Positions 14,474-40,363 of a DNA stretch of 64,000 bases are shown here, piece by piece. Each line of letters opens with the position of its first letter. The first letter of the stretch is position 1. The notes under the pieces were generated by a model. It was not told the origin of the DNA. It saw nothing but the letters and a program-made list of their open reading frames with translations, and ran no database searches. The DNA lies in assembly GCA_002420005.1 (NCBI GenBank), contig DIHE01000126.1, positions 77,536 to 141,535 on the forward strand, in the 5' to 3' direction. This DNA comes from Holophagales bacterium UBA5704 (GTDB taxonomy: Bacteria; Acidobacteriota; Thermoanaerobaculia; Multivoradales; UBA5704). A program made the position numbers and the translations under genes.

Positions 14474-16462
14474 TCACGAAGGAAGGAAACGCACCGACTC
14501 CAGGCAGGGCAGGGCACTCCCCTGGCGGGTCAACCAGAGCACGGTGGAGCCCTGGGCGCCCGCCGGCCAGGGGAGGCGCGCCTCCGTCCAGGCGGTGCGC
14601 CCGAGGGTGATGGCGTGCTCGACCGCGGCGTCAGGTCCCCCGGATCGGACGGCGAGCGCGCCCCGGTCTTCCTGGAGGAGCGCGGCGCGCAGGCCGATCG
14701 AGCGCGTTCCGGCCGGAACCTCCAGCCCGACGCCACCCAGGATCGGCCGGCATCCTTCGAGACGGGGCGGCCCGGAAATCCCCGGCAGGAGCAGGGCGAA
14801 GCTCGCCTGGCGCTGCTCCGGCGCCCGCATCCAGCGGACCTGCGCCCGCTCTTCGTCGGGGAGCCAGGCGAAGTCGACACCGGGTCCGGCGAGCGGTGTT
14901 CCCTGGAGGAGCTCCCGCCGCACCTCGGCGACCACGGTGCCTCCAGGGGCCGGTGCCGGCACCAGGGGGCGGCCGAGGAGCTGCGGGACGCGCAGGAGGT
15001 CGGGGTTGACCGCGGCGATCGTGGGCGGTGCCGGGCGGCGGGCGAGGCTCTCGACGATCGAGCCCGCGCCATGGCGGTAGGCGAGGGTCAGGCCGGGCGT
15101 TCCCAATCCGATCAGGTCGATCATCGGGCCGTCGTGGGCCAGGGCGATGAGGCCGGCGTCATTGAGCAGGAGGACGTCGCCGCGCCCCTGGCTCGACAGC
15201 CAGCTCACCGCCCGGCCATGGCGCCGGAAGAGGTCGGTCGCCGCCGCGGTGTGCTCCCGCGCCCACAGGTGGGTGGTGGCGAGGAGCGCCGCCGGGAGAA
15301 GCAGCGCGAGGGCGCGCCAGCGGGGCGCGAGCCCCCCGGCCGACCGGCGGCGCACCCAGGCTTCGATCGTCAGCGCCGATCCCGCGATCGCCAGCACCCA
15401 GGCGGCGGCGAGCCCGGCGTGGTGGTGGCGCATCTGCTGCCACGCCAGGTAGGAGGAGAGAGGCGCGGTGAGGAACAGGACAGCCCACGCGGCGGCCAGG
15501 GGGGCCAGAGGCGCCAGCGGCGATGCCTGGTGCCGCCGGAGGGCGCGCGCGCCGGCCAGCCCGACGGCGAGCGCCGTGGCGACGGCGAGGAGCCCGACCG
15601 GGAACCACAGCGCCGGGGTGCGCCCGGCATACACGGGCAGGAGGACGCTGCGGGCGGTCAGCCACCAGGCTTCCGGGAGCCGGCTCGCCGGTACGAAGGC
15701 TGCGTGGGTCCAGGACTTGGCGAGGGCTCCGGCCGGCTCGGCGGCTCCGGTGGCGGCGAGATGGAGCAGGGCCAGGCCGGCGCCCGGCAGGAGGGCGAGC
15801 AGAGCCGTCCCGCGGCGGCGCGGCCCGCGGCCGAGCAGGGCGGCGCCCACGGCGAGAAGGGTCAGGAAGGCGTTTTCCGGACGGGCCAGCGGGAGGAGGG
15901 CCACCAGGGTGAGAGGCGTCGCCCAGCGCGCCGCGGCCGGCTCGCGGAGCGCCCGGCTCCAGGCTGCGCAGGCGGCGAGGATCAAGGCGGCGTTCAAGGC
16001 GCTTTCCATCCCGGCGACGGCACCGAAGCCGACCGGCCCGGACCACACGACGGTGAGCCCGCCGGCGAGCGGCCAGGGCTCCGCCACGCCCGCCGCGCGC
16101 AGGGCGGCCGCCGTGGCGAGGCCGAGGAGGAAGAGGCTCAGCACACCCACGCCGCGCGACCAGAGAGACCAGATCCCGGGGTCGGACGACAGCCGGTGGA
16201 CCGGTACCAGAGGCAGGGTGAACAGCAACGAGGAGGCTCCCGAGGAGGGCTCGCCCTCGTTCCACTGCATCGGCAAGCCGCGCGCCGCCTGCCGGGCGTA
16301 GCGGACGAAGATGTAGGCGTCGTCCACGGCAAGCAGCCAGGGAGGAGGGGCGGCGAGCCCCGGAGCGCGGTTCGGATGGCGCAGAGGAGCCGTGAGGAGC
16401 GCGGCGAAGAGGAGCGCCGCGGCCAGAAGAAGGACGGCTTCGACGAGCCGTCGGCGGGTCAC
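14474..16462 (-). CDS. large polytopic membrane protein, possibly a GT-C-fold glycosyltransferase
   Basis: The GTG at 16462 overlaps the upstream TGA (GTGA). About 12 TM helices with an early-loop VDDAYIFVRYAR acidic motif, then a roughly 230-aa soluble C-terminal domain. Confidence 0.55.
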   Translation of the reverse strand: MTRRRLVEAVLLLAAALLFAALLTAPLRHPNRAPGLAAPPPWLLAVDDAYIFVRYARQAARGLPMQWNEGEPSSGASSLLFTLPLVPVHRLSSDPGIWSLWSRGVGVLSLFLLGLATAAALRAAGVAEPWPLAGGLTVVWSGPVGFGAVAGMESALNAALILAACAAWSRALREPAAARWATPLTLVALLPLARPENAFLTLLAVGAALLGRGPRRRGTALLALLPGAGLALLHLAATGAAEPAGALAKSWTHAAFVPASRLPEAWWLTARSVLLPVYAGRTPALWFPVGLLAVATALAVGLAGARALRRHQASPLAPLAPLAAAWAVLFLTAPLSSYLAWQQMRHHHAGLAAAWVLAIAGSALTIEAWVRRRSAGGLAPRWRALALLLPAALLATTHLWAREHTAAATDLFRRHGRAVSWLSSQGRGDVLLLNDAGLIALAHDGPMIDLIGLGTPGLTLAYRHGAGSIVESLARRPAPPTIAAVNPDLLRVPQLLGRPLVPAPAPGGTVVAEVRRELLQGTPLAGPGVDFAWLPDEERAQVRWMRAPEQRQASFALLLPGISGPPRLEGCRPILGGVGLEVPAGTRSIGLRAALLQEDRGALAVRSGGPDAAVEHAITLGRTAWTEARLPWPAGAQGSTVLWLTRQGSALPCLESVRFLPS

Positions 16463-17685
16463 CGCCAGACCCTCGTCTGCGGGTGATGGGTCCGCCAGTC
16501 GAACCAGGCGTCGAGCAGGACGTAGACCCGGGTCAGCCGCCGGCCCGCCAGGGGACCGCTCAGGGCCTCGCCGGCGAAGCTCCAGGTGCTCCCGGTCTCG
16601 GCGTCCAGCAGGACGAGCGGCGGCCCGCCCGGCCGGGCGAACAGATCGAGGGTGCGGCCGTCGATCCGCCGGTCGAAGACCCGGAGCGAGCGGCCGTCCT
16701 CGCCCACCACCAGCAGCAGCGGAACCCCCGCCAGGGTGTCGAGCACGGGGCTTTCCCGCCGCAGCCTGGCGACGGAATAGGCCTTGGAGGCCCCGGGCAG
16801 GGCGATCCCCGCGACCAGCTCGCGGGGATCGAACGGATCGCCCGGTCTCTCGGGGGTCACCACCGGCAGCTTCGCCGTCTCCGCTTCCCAGTCGTGCGAG
16901 AACTCCCGCCACGGTGCGCCGTCGTCCGGCCGCAGCACCCGCCCTCCCGGCTGTTCCCGCTTCCAGAGCCCGAAGGAGATCTCGTCGTGGTGCACGAGGT
17001 CCAAGGTGCGGCCCTTGAGCGGCCCGAACAGGGCTTCGCCGGTCACCTGCTGCCACCATGATCCCGTCTGCTCGTCCTGCATCAGAAAATTCTGGTTGTT
17101 GATTCCCGTGAGGTGGAACCGGAGGGTCCGCCCGTCGATCTCTGCTCTCCACACCAGACCGGTGTGACAGAGCGTTCAGTAGGTGACGGCCACGGGGACG
17201 CCGCCGACCACATCCTGCACGATGTGATGGTAGGCGACCTGGCGCACCGGATAAGCCGCGGTGTCGCCGTTCAGGGTGACCGCGAGCACCGCCTCGTCCT
17301 CTGCGACCCAGGCGGCCTCGGCGGCGGTGGCGTAGCGGGGGTCCGGCAGCGGCGCGAACATCCTCTCGAAGAGGTTCTGGCGGGATTGCCAGGCGGTGCC
17401 GAGGAGGGGCAGGAAGGCGAGGACGAGGAGGACCCGGCTCCTCCACCGTGCGCCGCGCCACAGCACCCCGGCGCACAGGACCGCGGCGGCCCCTGCGCCG
17501 AGAGTCAACCCGGGGGCGAGGCGGCGCATCCAGAACGCCACGGCGAGCCCGTCGGGTGTCTGCGGCGCGAACGGACGGATGAGCCAGACCGGCAGCGCCA
17601 CCAGGGCGAGACTCACCAAGACCAGACACACGAGACCGGCGCCCGCCAGACGGCGGAGGCCCGGCAAGGACCGCGGCTCAGACAT
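16459..17685 (-). CDS. DUF3179 family membrane-anchored protein with an in-frame UGA (17178-17176), candidate selenocysteine (UxxC)
   Basis: Track ORFs 17176-17685 and 16459-17154 share one frame and are separated only by TGA plus 7 sense codons. The joined sequence …VGGVPVAVTY-U-TLCHTGLVWRAEIDGRTLRFHLTG…QTGSWWQQ matches the DUF3179 core as I recall it. Confidence 0.6.
17145..17172 (-). other. candidate bacterial SECIS hairpin
   Basis: The mRNA CUCUGUCACACC-GGUCU-GGUGUGGAGAG forms 7 bp (one G.U), one bulged G and 4 more bp. The hairpin starts 4 nt after the UGA, and the apical GGUCU loop begins 15 nt after it. Confidence 0.5.
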
Positions 17686-18109
17686 GTTTCTCTCCTTTCG
17701 ATCGCGCCGAGGGCTCCGGCGCCGGCACGGCGACCAGCTTGCGGAACAGCTCGTCGAGCGCCTGCTCGGGGGCCCGGCAGAGGCCGGAGTGGACGGGCGA
17801 GACCTGCACCACGGTGCTGCGCGGGGCCACCAGCCAGTGGAAACGCTCGCGCCGCGACAGGCGGGCGATGGGGCCGGCGTCGGGAAGGCCGGCGCAGATG
17901 CGGGGGACGGCCTCCAGGTGGCGCCGGATCGTCTCGACGTCCGTCTCCGGCCAGAGCGCGCGCAGGCGGGGTGCGTCCACGGTGACCCGCGCGGCGAGCA
18001 CGTCCCGCTCGAGGCAGAACAGGATCACTCCGGCGTTGAGCTGCTCGCCGCGCTCCACCCGTGGCACCACGCGCAGAATCGCGTAGTCAAACGAGCTGGG
18101 CGCGGGCAC
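17678..18109 (-). CDS. DUF3037 domain protein
   Basis: FDYAILRVVPRVERGEQLNAGVILFC is the characteristic DUF3037 N-terminus. The GTG at 18109 lies 6 nt after GGAGG (alternative GTG at 18133). It overlaps the downstream gene by 8 nt. Confidence 0.7.
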   Translation of the reverse strand: MPAPSSFDYAILRVVPRVERGEQLNAGVILFCLERDVLAARVTVDAPRLRALWPETDVETIRRHLEAVPRICAGLPDAGPIARLSRRERFHWLVAPRSTVVQVSPVHSGLCRAPEQALDELFRKLVAVPAPEPSARSKGEKHV

Positions 18110-18869
18110 GCTCCGCCTCCTCGACGAACGCACGGGCGGCGGCGAGCCGTCCGGTCAGAAAGGCCAGGTAGCCGGCGCGCCGCCCGGCCGGCGTAAGGTC
18201 CCCCGGAGCGGCGCGCAGCCATGCGTCCGGGACCTCGTCCAGGATCGCGGCGAGCCGCGCCGCGGGGAGCAAGGCAGGAAGCCGCTCGCCGGCTTCCTCC
18301 AGCCGGCTCGCCCACGGGAGCAGCACGTGCTCGCGCACCGCGGCGAAGCGGGTCTTCGCCATCTCCTCGACGTTCTGCCAGGCGTGATGGAAGTACAGGG
18401 CCGCTCCGTGGTCGATCAGATACGGAGCGCGGTGCCAGAGCAAAAGGTTGGGATTGCGCGGCGTGCGGTCGACGTTGGTGACGAGGGCGTCGAACCAGAC
18501 GATCTCCGAGGCGAGCTCCGCCGCGAGGGAATCACCCGCCGCCGGATCGAACATCACCGAGCCCGGCAGATAGTCGAGAGCGAGATTGCAGCCGATGCTC
18601 GCCTTGAGCAGCTCGCGGATCTCCGGGTCGGGCTCGTTGCGGCCGAGCTCCACGCCGACCTCCATGAGCACCAGCTCGGGCACCGGAAGGCCCAGCGCGC
18701 GCCCGATCTCTCCGGCGACCAGCTCGGCCACCAGGGCGAGCGGCCCCTGCCCTGCGCCGCGGAACTTGAGGACGTAGAGCCCGTCGTCGTCCGCCTCGAC
18801 GAGCGCGGGCAGCGAGCCCCCTTCACGGAGGGGGGTGACGTAGCGGGTGGCGGTGACGGTGCGGAGCAT
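18087..18869 (-). CDS. HipA-like serine/threonine kinase family protein (the type usually paired with DUF3037)
   Basis: Kinase-like catalytic loop VTNVDRTPRNPNLLL and metal-binding YLIDHGAAL, 260 aa, immediately upstream of DUF3037. Confidence 0.6.
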   Translation of the reverse strand: MLRTVTATRYVTPLREGGSLPALVEADDDGLYVLKFRGAGQGPLALVAELVAGEIGRALGLPVPELVLMEVGVELGRNEPDPEIRELLKASIGCNLALDYLPGSVMFDPAAGDSLAAELASEIVWFDALVTNVDRTPRNPNLLLWHRAPYLIDHGAALYFHHAWQNVEEMAKTRFAAVREHVLLPWASRLEEAGERLPALLPAARLAAILDEVPDAWLRAAPGDLTPAGRRAGYLAFLTGRLAAARAFVEEAERARAQLV

Positions 18870-37156: not shown

Positions 37157-37294
37157 GATCTCCGGCGGCTCCTCGGTTCGATCCGCTCGTCAGGTCGGCG
37201 CGGGCCTCAGGCGTCCGCACGGCCAGGCACGACGTGAGTCTGGTCCATGAGCGGCTGCGAGCTGCGCGAGAGGGCGCCCTCGGACCCGCCGCCC

Positions 37295-37801
37295 CTAGTC
37301 CACCTCGGCCTTGATCGACAGCGCCAGAAGCGAGCCGTCGGCCTGGCGGGTTCCGCGGCCTTCGGCGCGGGTGGGACGGCCGGCGGCCACGGAGCGGGCG
37401 ATCTGGGCGAGGGAGTGGAGGTCGCCGCGCGCCTCCCACCGGGTCTGGGCGTTGACCACGATCCGGGTGCCACCGGCGAGGGTCAGGGAGCTCTGGCCGG
37501 CGGTGGTCACGGCTCCTTCGAACTCTTTGCCGGCCCGCGGCGCCTTGCCGCCTCCCTTCCCCCCCTTGCCTCCTTTGCCCCCTTTGCCACCACGGTTGTC
37601 GCCGCCGTTGTCGTCGTTGCCCCGGGTCTGGTTGTCGTCGGTGAGAGCGGCTGTCGAGCTGGCGGTGGTCGAGAAGGCCGGGGCGTCGTCGGTGAACGCG
37701 GGTTCCGTGGGGCTGGAGCCCTGCGAGCAGCCGATGGTGCCGAGCGCGAGGGTGGAGAGGGAGAGCAAAGCGATAAGCTGGAGGGAGCGATGGCGGTTCA
37801 T
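37295..37801 (-). CDS. lipoprotein with a (GGK)n low-complexity linker
   Basis: Lipobox LALGTIGC after a signal peptide, then GGKGGKGGKGGKGGGK, then a C-terminal beta-rich domain. Confidence 0.65.
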   Translation of the reverse strand: MNRHRSLQLIALLSLSTLALGTIGCSQGSSPTEPAFTDDAPAFSTTASSTAALTDDNQTRGNDDNGGDNRGGKGGKGGKGGKGGGKAPRAGKEFEGAVTTAGQSSLTLAGGTRIVVNAQTRWEARGDLHSLAQIARSVAAGRPTRAEGRGTRQADGSLLALSIKAEVD

Positions 37802-37810
37802 GGTATCTCC

Positions 37811-40363
37811 TTGTGGTTTGGTCGAGTTCTGTTCCGTCTGTTGAGACAGGCGAAGGCCGCCGGTGGAACAAACTTCTTTTGCGGTCTTCTGGTGCTGGCT
37901 CTGGTGGCCTCTCCTGTCGCCGGGCAGACGCTCGACCAAGCCGTTGCGCTGCACCAGGCGGGGCGCCTGCGCGAGGCGCTCCAGGCCTACCGGCGGATCG
38001 CCTCCGCCCACGCAGGTCAGGAGCCGGGGCTGGCCGCGGCGGCGCTCAACAACGCCTGCGTGCTGCAGCAGGACCAGGGCGCCCTGCGCGCCGCGCTGCC
38101 GGACTGCGAGGAGGCGCTGCGCTTGCGCCGGATCGAAGGAGACCCCTTGTCGATCGCCGAGACGGTGAACAACCTGGGGCTGATCCTGGAGACCCTGGGC
38201 CGCACCGGCGAGGCGGAGCGCCACTACCGCGAGGCGCTGGCGATCAACCGCAAGCTCGGCGAAGCCGAATCGGTGGCGATGAACCTGGGCAACCTCACCG
38301 CGATCGCGGTCCAGAAGGGCCGCTATTCCGAGGCCATGCGCCTCTCCACCGAGGCCGCCACGGTGGCCGCCCGCCATCCGGATGCGCCCTGGGCCGAGGA
38401 GCAAGGGCAGATCGCGCGGATCAACCAGAGCGTCGTGCTGCGCAAGGTGGGCGCCTACCGGGAGGCGCTCGATCTCTCTCGGGATCTCCTGAAAAGCAAC
38501 CGGCTGGACCCGCGGCGGCGTGCCGCACTGCTGGTGAATACCGGCGTCTTCTATCGCAACCTGGGAGATCCGGTGAGCGCGGTGGAGAGCTTCCGCGCCG
38601 CCATCGCGAGCTATCGCGCGCTGGGGGACACCGCGGGGCTGTCCAACGCCTGGCTCAACCTCGGGATCGCCCTGCATCTGAATCTGGCCCGCCCGCGCGA
38701 GGCCGAGGCCGCCTACCGGGAGGCGCTCCGTCTCGCCGAAGCGGACGGCAATCAGATCGAGGCGGTCGAGGATCTGTTCTATCTCGGCCGCCTCCTCCTG
38801 GCGCAGGGCCGGCTGGACGAGGCGGAGGCGGCCTTCCGGCGCTGCCTGGACGGGGCGACGCAGAGCGGCTCGGTCGATGGGCGGTGGTCGGCCCGCGAGG
38901 GGCTGGGGCGGATCGCCGCGGCGCGCGGGGACCTGCCGGGCGCCCTGGCGCACCTCCTCGGTGCCCTGGACGAGATCGAGCGGGTACGCGCCGGCCTCGA
39001 CCGCAGCGGCTGGCGGGCCGGCTATTTCGGCGACAAGCGCTCCGTTTATGCCGCGACGGTGGACGTGCTATGGCGGCTCGCCCGGCTCCGGCCGCGGGAA
39101 GGCTTCGCCGGCCGCGCCCTGGAGGTGGTGCAGCGCGCCAAGGCGCGCGACCTGCTCGATGCCCTGGGACCCGGGGGCGCTGCGTTGACCCCGGCCACCG
39201 CCGCCGCGATCACCGCCCGGGCCGACGGCACCCTGCTCGAATATTTCCTGAGTGAGGACCGCCTCTATCTCTGGACGATCCGTCGCGGTGCGCTGCAGAT
39301 GGCGGACCTCGGCCCCAAGACCCCCGTGGCGGCGGACGTTCTGCGGGTGCACCGGGCGCTCGCCGGGGGGACCGAGCCGGACGCGGCGGCGGTCACGCGG
39401 CTCTCCCGCACGCTCCTCGGGCCGGCCGGTCCTCTGGGTGCGAAGGGGGAGACGCTCCGCATCGCGCCCGACGGGCTGCTGCACTATCTCCCGTTCGAGA
39501 TCCTCGCGGCGCCCGCGGCCGACGGCGCGCCCCTGGTCGAGCGCCACGCCATCTCCTACCTGCCGAGTGCCTCCCTGCGGGGGGCCGGTGACGCCACCGC
39601 CTCCCCCACCCTCCGCCTCGCCGGCTTCGGCGCCCCGCTTCCCTCGCGCCCGACCGCCGGGGCAACCCTTGTGGTGGCCCAACCCCTACCGGCCGCCGAG
39701 CGGGAGCTCACCGCCATCGGGAGCCTCCTGGGCGGATCGAGCGAGCGGCACCTGGGCGCACAAGCGACTGAGCGGGCCTTCCGCCAGGTGTTCGCCCGGG
39801 GCGCCCGGGTGGTGCACTTCGCCACCCACACCGTGGTGGAAGAACGGCCGGGCGGTGGCGCCTCCATCCTCCTCACCGCAGCGGGCGGAGACGACGGCCT
39901 CCTGCAACCGCGGGAGATTGCCGGCCTCACCGGCTCGTGTGACCTGGTGGTGCTCGCGGCCTGCAGCACGTCCCTCGGAGCGGGGGAGGAAGGAGGAGCC
40001 CTGGTCTCCCTCACCGGCTCCTTCCTCGCCGCCGGAGCCCCCGCCGTCGTGGCCACCCTCTGGGACGTGGGCGATGCCGCGACCGCCGTCTTCATGGAGC
40101 AGCTCTACGCCCAGCTCGGCCGCGGCCTTCCTCCGGACGAAGCCCTGCGCCGGGCGAAGCTGCGCCTGCGCGCCGATCCGCGCTGGAACCGGCCTGGCCT
40201 CTGGTCGGGCTATGTCCTGGTGGGAGAGGCGCCGCCGGTGGCGCCGCGCCGGGAGCTGCGGCTGGCCCTGATCTGGGGAGGCGCGGCGGGGCTCCTGCTG
40301 CTCGGCCTCGCCGCGCGCCGCCTCACTCGAAGACGATCGCGCCGTTCTCCATCGCCAGCTTGA
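37811..40363 (+). CDS. TPR-repeat plus CHAT (caspase-like) domain protein with a C-terminal TM anchor
   Basis: Multiple TPR-like repeats (…AERHYREALAINRKLGE…). CHAT His/Cys dyad contexts are VVHFATHTV and DLVVLAACSTSLG. The tail is hydrophobic. The start is uncertain (TTG at 37811; the ATG at 37790 would overlap the divergent gene). Confidence 0.7.
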   Translation: MWFGRVLFRLLRQAKAAGGTNFFCGLLVLALVASPVAGQTLDQAVALHQAGRLREALQAYRRIASAHAGQEPGLAAAALNNACVLQQDQGALRAALPDCEEALRLRRIEGDPLSIAETVNNLGLILETLGRTGEAERHYREALAINRKLGEAESVAMNLGNLTAIAVQKGRYSEAMRLSTEAATVAARHPDAPWAEEQGQIARINQSVVLRKVGAYREALDLSRDLLKSNRLDPRRRAALLVNTGVFYRNLGDPVSAVESFRAAIASYRALGDTAGLSNAWLNLGIALHLNLARPREAEAAYREALRLAEADGNQIEAVEDLFYLGRLLLAQGRLDEAEAAFRRCLDGATQSGSVDGRWSAREGLGRIAAARGDLPGALAHLLGALDEIERVRAGLDRSGWRAGYFGDKRSVYAATVDVLWRLARLRPREGFAGRALEVVQRAKARDLLDALGPGGAALTPATAAAITARADGTLLEYFLSEDRLYLWTIRRGALQMADLGPKTPVAADVLRVHRALAGGTEPDAAAVTRLSRTLLGPAGPLGAKGETLRIAPDGLLHYLPFEILAAPAADGAPLVERHAISYLPSASLRGAGDATASPTLRLAGFGAPLPSRPTAGATLVVAQPLPAAERELTAIGSLLGGSSERHLGAQATERAFRQVFARGARVVHFATHTVVEERPGGGASILLTAAGGDDGLLQPREIAGLTGSCDLVVLAACSTSLGAGEEGGALVSLTGSFLAAGAPAVVATLWDVGDAATAVFMEQLYAQLGRGLPPDEALRRAKLRLRADPRWNRPGLWSGYVLVGEAPPVAPRRELRLALIWGGAAGLLLLGLAARRLTRRRSRRSPSPA

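Follow-up and report, generated by a model that had tools for sequence, protein, structure and literature searches.

Two reviews (PMC9312934 and PMC13188914) tabulate DUF3179 as a selenoprotein family with the motif UxxC/T. Both credit it to Zhang and Gladyshev (2007, NAR 35:4952), a study that, as these reviews present it, covered the deltaproteobacterial symbionts of Olavius and other genomes. The published members share the Pfam domain, carry selenocysteine (Sec) at the first position of CxxC/T, have Cys homologues, and contain a SECIS-like hairpin directly 3' of the UGA. The 2026 review makes no mention of Acidobacteriota or Gemmatimonadota. A homologue with 51% identity to the protein described here, P0039, bears the NCBI name 'DUF3179 domain-containing (seleno)protein'. 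A preceding sequence-only reading of the locus, which did not count DUF3179 among the listed selenoproteins, was thus mistaken on this point. Its central proposal, a selenoprotein with a Sec-for-Cys UxxC motif and a SECIS element, is well supported by the conservation of TGA, reading frame, and hairpin in 105 genomes.

We found no essential difference between the published DUF3179 selenoproteins and the protein encoded here. The Sec family, the position of Sec, and the motif have already been published, and the finding is correct but ordinary. What it adds is that soil Acidobacteriota and Gemmatimonadota very commonly carry the Sec form, whose SECIS core is almost invariant. The points established here are the integrity of the gene, the correspondence of Sec and Cys, selection on the RNA element, and the presence of selA in genomes that carry orthologues. 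We conclude with high confidence that the gene encodes a single 408-residue selenoprotein of the DUF3179 family, the UGA being decoded as Sec.

Results and discussion

A single in-frame UGA interrupts an otherwise intact gene

The coding sequence occupies positions 16459–17685 of the 64-kb window (the whole stretch of DNA that was analysed) and lies on the minus strand, as do all other features given below. It is complete, with 408 codons, an ATG at 17685–17683, a Shine-Dalgarno-like AGGAG (17692–17696) 6 nt upstream of it, and a TGA stop at 16461–16459. The sole interruption of the frame is the TGA at 17178–17176, the predicted Sec codon 170 at the first position of U-T-L-C. The junction peptide reads VAVTY-UGA-TLCHTGLVWRAEIDGRTLRF. 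The earlier description of an ORF that runs from 17685 to a TGA at 17176 and stays open beyond it to 16459 was correct in all coordinates, and its quotation of the junction matches ours. In 151 related loci the N-terminal 169 residues are conserved, with the frame intact as far as the TGA, and both gene halves are kept in frame in more than 100. The gene has a single in-frame UGA within an otherwise intact and conserved frame, as is characteristic of selenoprotein genes.

If the UGA acted as a stop, the gene would be split or a pseudogene, consisting of a 169-aa membrane peptide and a separate or dead C-terminal ORF of 231 aa with a GTG start at 17154. Automatic gene callers produce just such calls, and the approximately 100 database proteins nearest in sequence are entries of ~234 aa that start with MWRAE directly after the UGA. 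For such a split, however, 105 species of two phyla would all need to have kept the break in frame, as TGA, and at the codon of the catalytic Cys, with both halves staying conserved. The split would also break the DUF3179 domain internally, abolish the invariant Cys-x-x-Cys, and leave the synonymous freeze downstream of the UGA (see below) without explanation. We therefore regard a split gene as extremely improbable. The appropriate annotation is one selenoprotein of 408 aa instead of the two fragments given by most metagenome pipelines, whose truncated products make up these database entries.

The codon at position 170 is TGA, and never TAA or TAG, in 105 loci from Acidobacteriota and Gemmatimonadota, comprising Thermoanaerobaculia, Holophagales, Vicinamibacteria, Blastocatellia/Pyrinomonadaceae, Terriglobia, Bryobacterales, and Gemmatimonadota. 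Only one base change in the contig, from TGC or TGT to TGA, would be needed if this codon were a sequencing or assembly error. The same TGA, however, recurs in assemblies made independently by many projects on many platforms, 104 in all and long-read MFD MAGs among them, and an error is effectively refuted.

The UGA replaces the invariant first Cys of the DUF3179 domain

The read-through product matched PF11376 from residue 115 to 404 (16474–17343) with 204.8 bits (gathering cut-off 27 bits; E = 2.5e-60), covering profile positions 9–292 of 292. The match to this beta-rich domain, which contains an internal repeat, crosses the UGA junction. In the alignment, all 38 distant DUF3179 proteins of the Cys type (100%) have Cys in the UGA column, and seven close homologues have TGC at this codon, as checked at the DNA level. 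Both the profile and the Cys orthologues thus place the UGA at the first Cys of the CxxC motif, where the sequence-only reading had put it, and this Cys is invariant in the family. Family HMM searches with the protein matched DUF3179 only, and a search of NCBIfam yielded no matching model.

All family-invariant residues are found in the protein, namely His153, Cys/Sec170, Leu172, Asp204, and Trp211. His153 (17227–17229) belongs to an H-E/H-I-V-N-D motif and is present in 100% of 39 sequences. Asp204 (17074–17076) is part of a D-x-x-T-x-S-x-W motif that recurs at residues ~361–368. Cys173, encoded together with His174 at 17164–17169, is predicted to serve as the resolving Cys, or as a ligand, in UxxC. 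Across the broad family, 94% of sequences retain it and two have Thr instead. His174 is restricted to the acidobacterial clade, and other members have N, Y, A, or R at this position, or G in two CPLT sequences. We also considered a c-type cytochrome with CXXCH-type haem attachment at UTLCH. The string U/C-T-L-C-H is confined to the acidobacterial clade, and the lack of conservation of the His in the broad family led us to reject haem attachment.

A conserved stem-loop follows the UGA

The conserved SECIS core (17149–17167) consists of the 7-bp stem UCACACC/GGUGUGG and the apical loop GGUCU (17160–17156), which begins 15 nt after the UGA. In this genome the full hairpin (17144–17173) additionally comprises a lower stem GCUCU/AGAGC, separated from the core by the bulged G17168. 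RNAfold reproduced the previously described hairpin of 11 bp at 17172–17145, with one bulged G and a GGUCU loop, and added a twelfth pair, G17173–C17144, at a minimum free energy of −22 to −23 kcal/mol. This energy is ordinary for DNA of 70% GC (z = −0.43; 63 of 200 shuffled sequences folded as well), so the significance of the hairpin derives from comparative data and not from thermodynamics. Rfam returned no SECIS or tRNA-Sec match, either at the gathering threshold on the window or in E-value mode on 17050–17250.

The SECIS of E. coli fdhF (sequence taken from NC_000913) likewise lies within the coding sequence directly 3' of the UGA, and its loop also begins with GGUC. The proposed likeness to fdhF holds for this loop, for the shared GGUCUG, and for the similar distance from the UGA, which at 15 nt is one codon shorter than the 18 nt of fdhF. 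It does not extend to the bulged U of fdhF, which is absent from the regular 7-bp upper stem, the G bulge here lying below the conserved stem. The apical loop comprises 5 nt, compared with 4 nt in fdhF, and SelB binding is predicted here.

Across the relatives, synonymous sites are nearly frozen in the 27 nt 3' of the UGA (UCACACC/GGUCU/GGUGUGG). Synonymous entropy drops to 0.08–0.58 bits at codons +1 to +8 only, compared with 1.3–2.0 bits at similarly conserved (≥93%) four- and sixfold degenerate codons. The upper-stem pairs are retained in 97.6–100% of 82 distinct sequences. Among the Sec forms, 81 of 98 show no difference from the 27-nt consensus (mean 0.21). The seven Cys forms, which encode the same peptide TLCHTGLVW, carry two to six synonymous changes and have mostly lost the hairpin (Mann-Whitney p ~ 1e-9 for Sec vs Cys forms, uncorrected for phylogeny). 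One compensatory change, from C–G to U–A, distinguishes the stems of loci L137 and L152, and loci L081 and L082 possess an alternative hairpin. Covariation among the 82 sequences is sparse and its test uninformative because the stem is nearly invariant. When the hairpin is followed through the UGA-bearing orthologues, the upper 7-bp stem and the loop prove conserved, while the lower 5-bp stem is particular to a Thermoanaerobaculia subclade and poorly conserved outside it, hairpin columns 7/34 and 9/32 being unpaired in most sequences. These comparisons show that the SECIS-like stem-loop is under selection in genes with Sec and that this constraint is relaxed in those with Cys. Sec and Cys forms of an identical peptide offer a clean natural experiment on the selection of a SECIS within a coding region.

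UGA is a normal stop codon in the window, and relatives encode SelA

TGA terminates 26 of the 42 ORFs with a coding signature in the window, including tsaD, pgk, and gap, and also the HipA-like gene. The earlier observation that TGA ends many genes of the window, among them tsaD and the HipA-like gene, was accurate. Reassignment of the UGA codon is well ruled against, TGA being a normal stop here. In the window, only a single in-frame TGA is flanked on either side by coding signal, and no further selenoprotein gene was found there.

The selA gene (TIGR00474) was detected with 437–452 bits (cut-off 268 bits) in at least eight MAGs that also carry the Sec-form gene, namely SMAG_U6494, MFD03066.bin.1.255, MFD09730.bin.2.32, BP_60, SMAG_U8840, MFD04935.bin.1.7, SMAG_U6239, and SMAG_U16097. 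None of selA, selB, selD, and tRNA-Sec lies within the 64-kb window, and neither selB, selC, nor selD was found adjoining selA in the relatives, so that selA is the sole machinery gene documented for the clade. ARAGORN, applied to the window and 360 loci, detected tRNA-Sec in no acidobacterial locus. Searching the window and the first 160 loci by tblastn with E. coli SelA, SelB, and SelD gave three kinds of match only: an actinomycete SelD (locus L059), a SelA-like match in L081, and GTPase-domain proteins. The match in L081 is a Tat-signal protein of the DgaE type and not SelA.

The UGA might also be recoded to something other than Sec, with a selC* tRNA(Cys) or an allo-tRNA inserting Cys or Ser, or near-cognate read-through inserting Trp. 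Mukai et al. (PMC5389517) described selC*, tRNA(Cys) species mimicking tRNA(Sec), as well as suppressor-like allo-tRNAs, many of them acidobacterial, and the inserted residue is not readable from DNA. The selC* species of that study, however, belong to Firmicutes, Thermodesulfobacteria, Nitrospirae, and Proteobacteria, not to Acidobacteriota, and DUF3179 is already curated as a selenoprotein. The true SelA equivalog in the eight MAGs also speaks against such recoding. Selenoproteins classically show alternation of Sec and Cys at the first position of CxxC together with a SelB-type hairpin, and the presence of this signature here likewise argues for Sec. We consider non-Sec recoding very unlikely.

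Predicted architecture and mechanism

Upon translation, UGA170 would be decoded as Sec. The stem-loop UCACACC-GGUCU-GGUGUGG, with its loop 15 nt behind the UGA, would serve as a bacterial SECIS within the coding sequence and presumably bind SelB·GTP·Sec-tRNA(Sec) and bring it to the ribosome when the UGA moves into the A site. Hydropathy suggests that the protein is anchored by approximately three N-terminal transmembrane helices (residues ~14–100; 17386–17646), with an Arg-rich loop at residues 77–85. Homologue P0039, which has the motif C-T-L-C-H, shares this three-helix N-terminus, and its AF2 model shows three long N-terminal helices. The DUF3179 beta-domain is predicted to reside outside the cytoplasmic membrane because of the positive-inside rule and the single N-terminal anchor in other family members.

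In the predicted centre, Sec170-x-x-Cys173 would lie beside the family-invariant His153 and Asp204. Some members have Thr instead of the second Cys, and the first Cys, which is invariant, is the one that Sec replaces; this makes Sec170 the probable reactive nucleophile or ligand. We infer an extracytoplasmic centre on Sec170, with Cys173, His153, and Asp204, that may be redox-active, forming a selenenylsulfide, or may bind a metal. These four residues are the candidates for assigning a function to DUF3179.

By analogy, the protein most likely works like the thiol-disulfide oxidoreductase-like selenoproteins (UxxC/UxxS/UxxT; DsbA-like and thiol-disulfide isomerase-like), in which Sec replaces the attacking Cys and the second residue is Cys or Thr. 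An extracytoplasmic location, predicted for the present protein, is a further likeness. Unlike these proteins, however, it has no thioredoxin fold, and the AF2 model consists of a two-lobed all-beta domain. No PDB match was obtained by sequence. By fold, Foldseek gave weak Rieske-like matches only (E ≥ 0.05, best 0.052), with no c-type cytochrome model among them. The Rieske [2Fe-2S] domains 3gce and 5cxm were the sole recurrent matches (probability 0.99; TM to target 0.56–0.58). The beta-domain likewise contains His and Cys ligand candidates, but the Rieske ligand pattern CxH…CxxH is absent, and with this E value we rejected a Rieske [2Fe-2S] identity. The resemblance may reflect a generic beta-sandwich similarity.

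It is conceivable, though rather doubtful, that the protein represents an uncharacterised class of extracytoplasmic, membrane-anchored selenoenzymes with a catalytic Sec(Cys)-His-Asp centre carried by a Rieske-like beta scaffold. If so, the Sec form would be a main reason for many soil Acidobacteriota and Gemmatimonadota to retain the Sec machinery, and the near-invariant 27-nt SECIS in two phyla would reflect unusually strict recognition by SelB or horizontal spread.

Gene neighbourhood

Immediately downstream, a 662-aa multi-pass membrane ORF without Pfam match (14474–16462) overlaps the DUF3179 stop with its GTG start (GTGA). It has no homologue in any related locus, and its linkage to DUF3179 is not conserved. 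No conserved operon partner of the DUF3179 gene was found in the related loci, where the clustered neighbours are generic, and no redox partner is encoded nearby. Upstream lies a DUF3037 gene (17678–18133; PF11236, E = 6e-44), which overlaps the start of the DUF3179 gene with its TGA stop (ATGTCTGA). Its upstream partner is a HipA_2-family kinase gene (18087–18869; PF20613, E = 8e-21), which also ends with TGA. HipA_2 and DUF3037 are retained only in the two closest genomes (loci L001 and L002). Located 3' of two of the Cys forms is a CMD/AhpD-like gene.

An in-frame UGA occupies the position of a conserved cysteine

On the minus strand, an ORF preceded by AGGAG extends from an ATG at 17685 to a TGA at 16461–16459 and encodes 408 aa. 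As claimed in the earlier sequence-only reading, its sole in-frame interruption is a TGA at 17178–17176, codon 170. The product, with this position filled with Cys, was searched against PF11376 (DUF3179), a check proposed in that reading. The domain spanned the UGA junction (aa 115–404) with 204.8 bits, compared to a cut-off of 27. The UGA had been predicted to replace the first Cys of a CxxC motif, and when the product was aligned to 38 distant DUF3179 proteins (26–35% identity), the corresponding column was indeed Cys in 38/38. The second Cys was retained in 94% of this alignment, with Thr in two proteins, and His153, Leu172, Asp204, and Trp211 were invariant. Close full-length homologues, for example, P0001 and P0039, carry TGC at the aligned codon (seven verified in DNA).

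Of the 42 ORFs in the window whose GC3 shows a coding signature, 26 end in TGA, among them tsaD, pgk, gap, and the gene resembling HipA, which makes codon reassignment as unlikely as previously supposed. No second in-frame TGA in the window has coding signal both before and after it.

The UGA is conserved among relatives

Two scans of a species-representative genome collection yielded 159 loci with relatives. The codon aligned to the UGA was TGA in 104 of them, in addition to the window, and in none was it TAA or TAG. The conserved TGA is followed by (T/R)LCHT(G/A)xVW and, going by record titles, occurs in Thermoanaerobaculia, Holophagales, Vicinamibacteria, Blastocatellia/Pyrinomonadaceae, Terriglobia, Bryobacterales, and Gemmatimonadota; the closest TGA-form relative (78% identity) belongs to the Thermoanaerobaculia. 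The N-terminal 169 residues were conserved in 151 loci, ending in frame exactly at the TGA. In the protein database, approximately 100 of the 120 best matches were calls of ~234 aa beginning with MWRAE, which start at a GTG or ATG just 3' of the UGA and represent gene-caller truncations. Thus, metagenome gene catalogues systematically misannotate Sec-form DUF3179 genes, i.e., those with TGA at the first motif position, as fragments. Taken together, these findings exclude both a sequencing error and a pseudogene.

The sequence-only reading did not place DUF3179 on published selenoprotein lists. The family is, however, already included in two of them (PMC9312934, PMC13188914), and NCBI names the 51% identical P0039 a "DUF3179 domain-containing (seleno)protein". 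Thus, the protein identified correctly from raw sequence belongs to a known selenoprotein family rather than to a new one; the proposed biology holds, whereas the novelty does not.

P0077, from a 3-kb ENA contig, is 98% identical to the C-terminal half of the window protein and diverges completely after ...RIDGRT; a near-identical strain with a frameshift or a chimeric assembly is the probable cause. The Actinomycetota MAG MGR_bin198 (L048:2019) contains an apparently independent Sec form, VTW-TGA-PLCFS, whose downstream hairpin differs (loop UGUA) and which adjoins a Cys-type paralogue at ~976, suggesting more than one Cys-to-Sec conversion within the DUF3179 family.

Synonymous codons are frozen downstream of the UGA

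The hairpin described previously 3' of the UGA was found on the minus strand in all its parts: a lower stem GCUCU/AGAGC, a bulged G at 17168, an upper stem UCACACC/GGUGUGG, and an apical GGUCU loop (17160–17156) beginning 15 nt from the UGA. The overall observation of an in-frame UGA plus hairpin in a DUF3179 gene is confirmed. The folding energy is ordinary for 70% GC DNA (z=-0.43), so that the window sequence alone displays the elements without proving their function.

Among 97 distinct Sec-form genes, synonymous-codon entropy was 0.08–0.58 bits at codons +1 to +8 past the UGA, which coincide with the upper stem and loop, compared to 1.3–2.0 bits at other four- and six-fold degenerate positions of the alignment with comparable conservation (>=93%). 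A 27-nt consensus was matched exactly by 81 of the 98 Sec forms encoding TLCHTGLVW (mean 0.21 differences). In contrast, seven Cys forms (Cys codon in place of the UGA) encoding the same peptide showed 2–6 synonymous differences (GGT to GGC/GGG/GGA, CTG to CTC/CTT, GTG to GTC; Mann–Whitney p ~1e-9, phylogeny ignored), and most of them have lost the hairpin folding. We conclude that the nucleotide constraint follows the UGA and not the peptide.

The stem is so nearly invariant that it offers little classical covariation. Between loci L137 and L152, a compensatory change from C-G to U-A affects the His and Val third positions; both have a variant with an 8-bp stem and a 7-nt loop within the first ~48 nt past the TGA. 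In L081 and L082, one usual pair is broken, and an alternative hairpin, CCGCUC/UGGUCUGG/GAGCGG, can present the same GGUCU. The lower stem of the window is restricted to its own subclade. The proposed likeness to the fdhF SECIS holds as a resemblance: in the E. coli K-12 genome sequence, GGUC follows the UGA after 18 nt, compared to 15 nt to GGUCU here, and both elements share the hexamer GGUCUG. The window element is a putative SelB-binding hairpin.

Selenocysteine machinery in related genomes

No selA, selB, selD, or tRNA-Sec gene was found within the 64-kb window. To test the clade, genomes were scanned with the SelA PLP motif GDKLLGGPQAG, back-translated into GC-rich codons; true SelA genes were thereby detected in several members of the Acidobacteriota and Gemmatimonadota. 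With the SelA of locus L170 as query, the 80 closest relatives, mostly from Thermoanaerobaculia, were retrieved, and their isolate names were matched to the Sec-form loci. Eight isolates possess both selA and a Sec-form DUF3179 gene (SMAG_U6494, MFD03066.bin.1.255, MFD09730.bin.2.32, BP_60, SMAG_U8840, MFD04935.bin.1.7, SMAG_U6239, and SMAG_U16097). A 7,050,730-bp chromosome also carrying P0084 is likely a ninth case. These SelA proteins scored 437–452 bits on the equivalog model TIGR00474 (cut-off 268). No selB, selC, or selD adjoined selA in the relatives' selA loci. Selenoproteins of Acidobacteria have been recorded before (Zhang et al., 2006; PMC1794560).

A SelA-like PLP protein of the DgaE type with a Tat signal, encoded ~2–3 kb from the Sec-form gene of L081 (9256–10461, minus strand), is not a true SelA. 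An actinomycete MAG encodes a Cys-type DUF3179 protein and, ~6 kb away, a SelD homologue with 40% identity to E. coli SelD (L059:1259–2263, minus strand).

Protein architecture

In the AlphaFold model of P0039, a Cys homologue (pLDDT 85.8, pTM 0.79), three long helices at the N terminus precede a beta-rich domain. Hydrophobic segments of the window protein match these helices, the second and third being separated by an Arg-rich loop; we infer that the N terminus faces the cytoplasm (N-in) and that the DUF3179 domain lies on the outer side of the cytoplasmic membrane. Within this domain, the pattern D-x-x-T-x-S-x-W ... G-x-A-x-x-G-P-L-x-G-x-x-L forms an internal repeat. No solved structure matched by sequence, and fold matches were weak, mostly to Rieske-type domains (E>=0.05). 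The clade-specific U/C-T-L-C-H could be read as a haem motif, which we rejected because its His is not conserved across the family. Most likely, Sec170, encoded by the UGA, provides the reactive atom of a predicted redox-active or metal-binding centre, in which Cys173 would be its partner, assisted by His153 and Asp204.

Gene neighbourhood

No conserved neighbour of DUF3179 was found among the related loci. Upstream, two overlapping genes on the minus strand (17678–18869) encode a kinase of the HipA_2 family (PF20613) and a DUF3037 protein (PF11236); the stop codon of the DUF3037 gene overlaps the start codon of DUF3179 (ATGTCTGA). The pair resembles a toxin-antitoxin or defence-type module, and only the two closest genomes (L001 and L002) retain it. 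Downstream, a 662-aa multi-pass membrane ORF (14474–16462, minus strand) starts at a GTG that overlaps the stop codon of DUF3179 (GTGA) and had neither a Pfam match nor a homologue in 160 related loci. These neighbours are local accidents of the lineage.

A CMD/AhpD-like gene (PF02627) lies downstream of two Cys-form DUF3179 genes, L365:2129–3132 and L366:2267–2839. It follows directly in L366; in L365, a 329-aa ORF lacking annotation intervenes, the Pfam match is weak, and the locus end truncates the CMD/AhpD-like gene. Such thiol-peroxidase-type CxxC proteins weakly hint at a redox context. Elsewhere, the window encodes a 1038-aa TPR-CHAT protein (37247–40363, plus strand) and an arylamine N-acetyltransferase (PF00797; 9513–10934, plus strand) with an N-terminal extension of ~240 aa without domain match.
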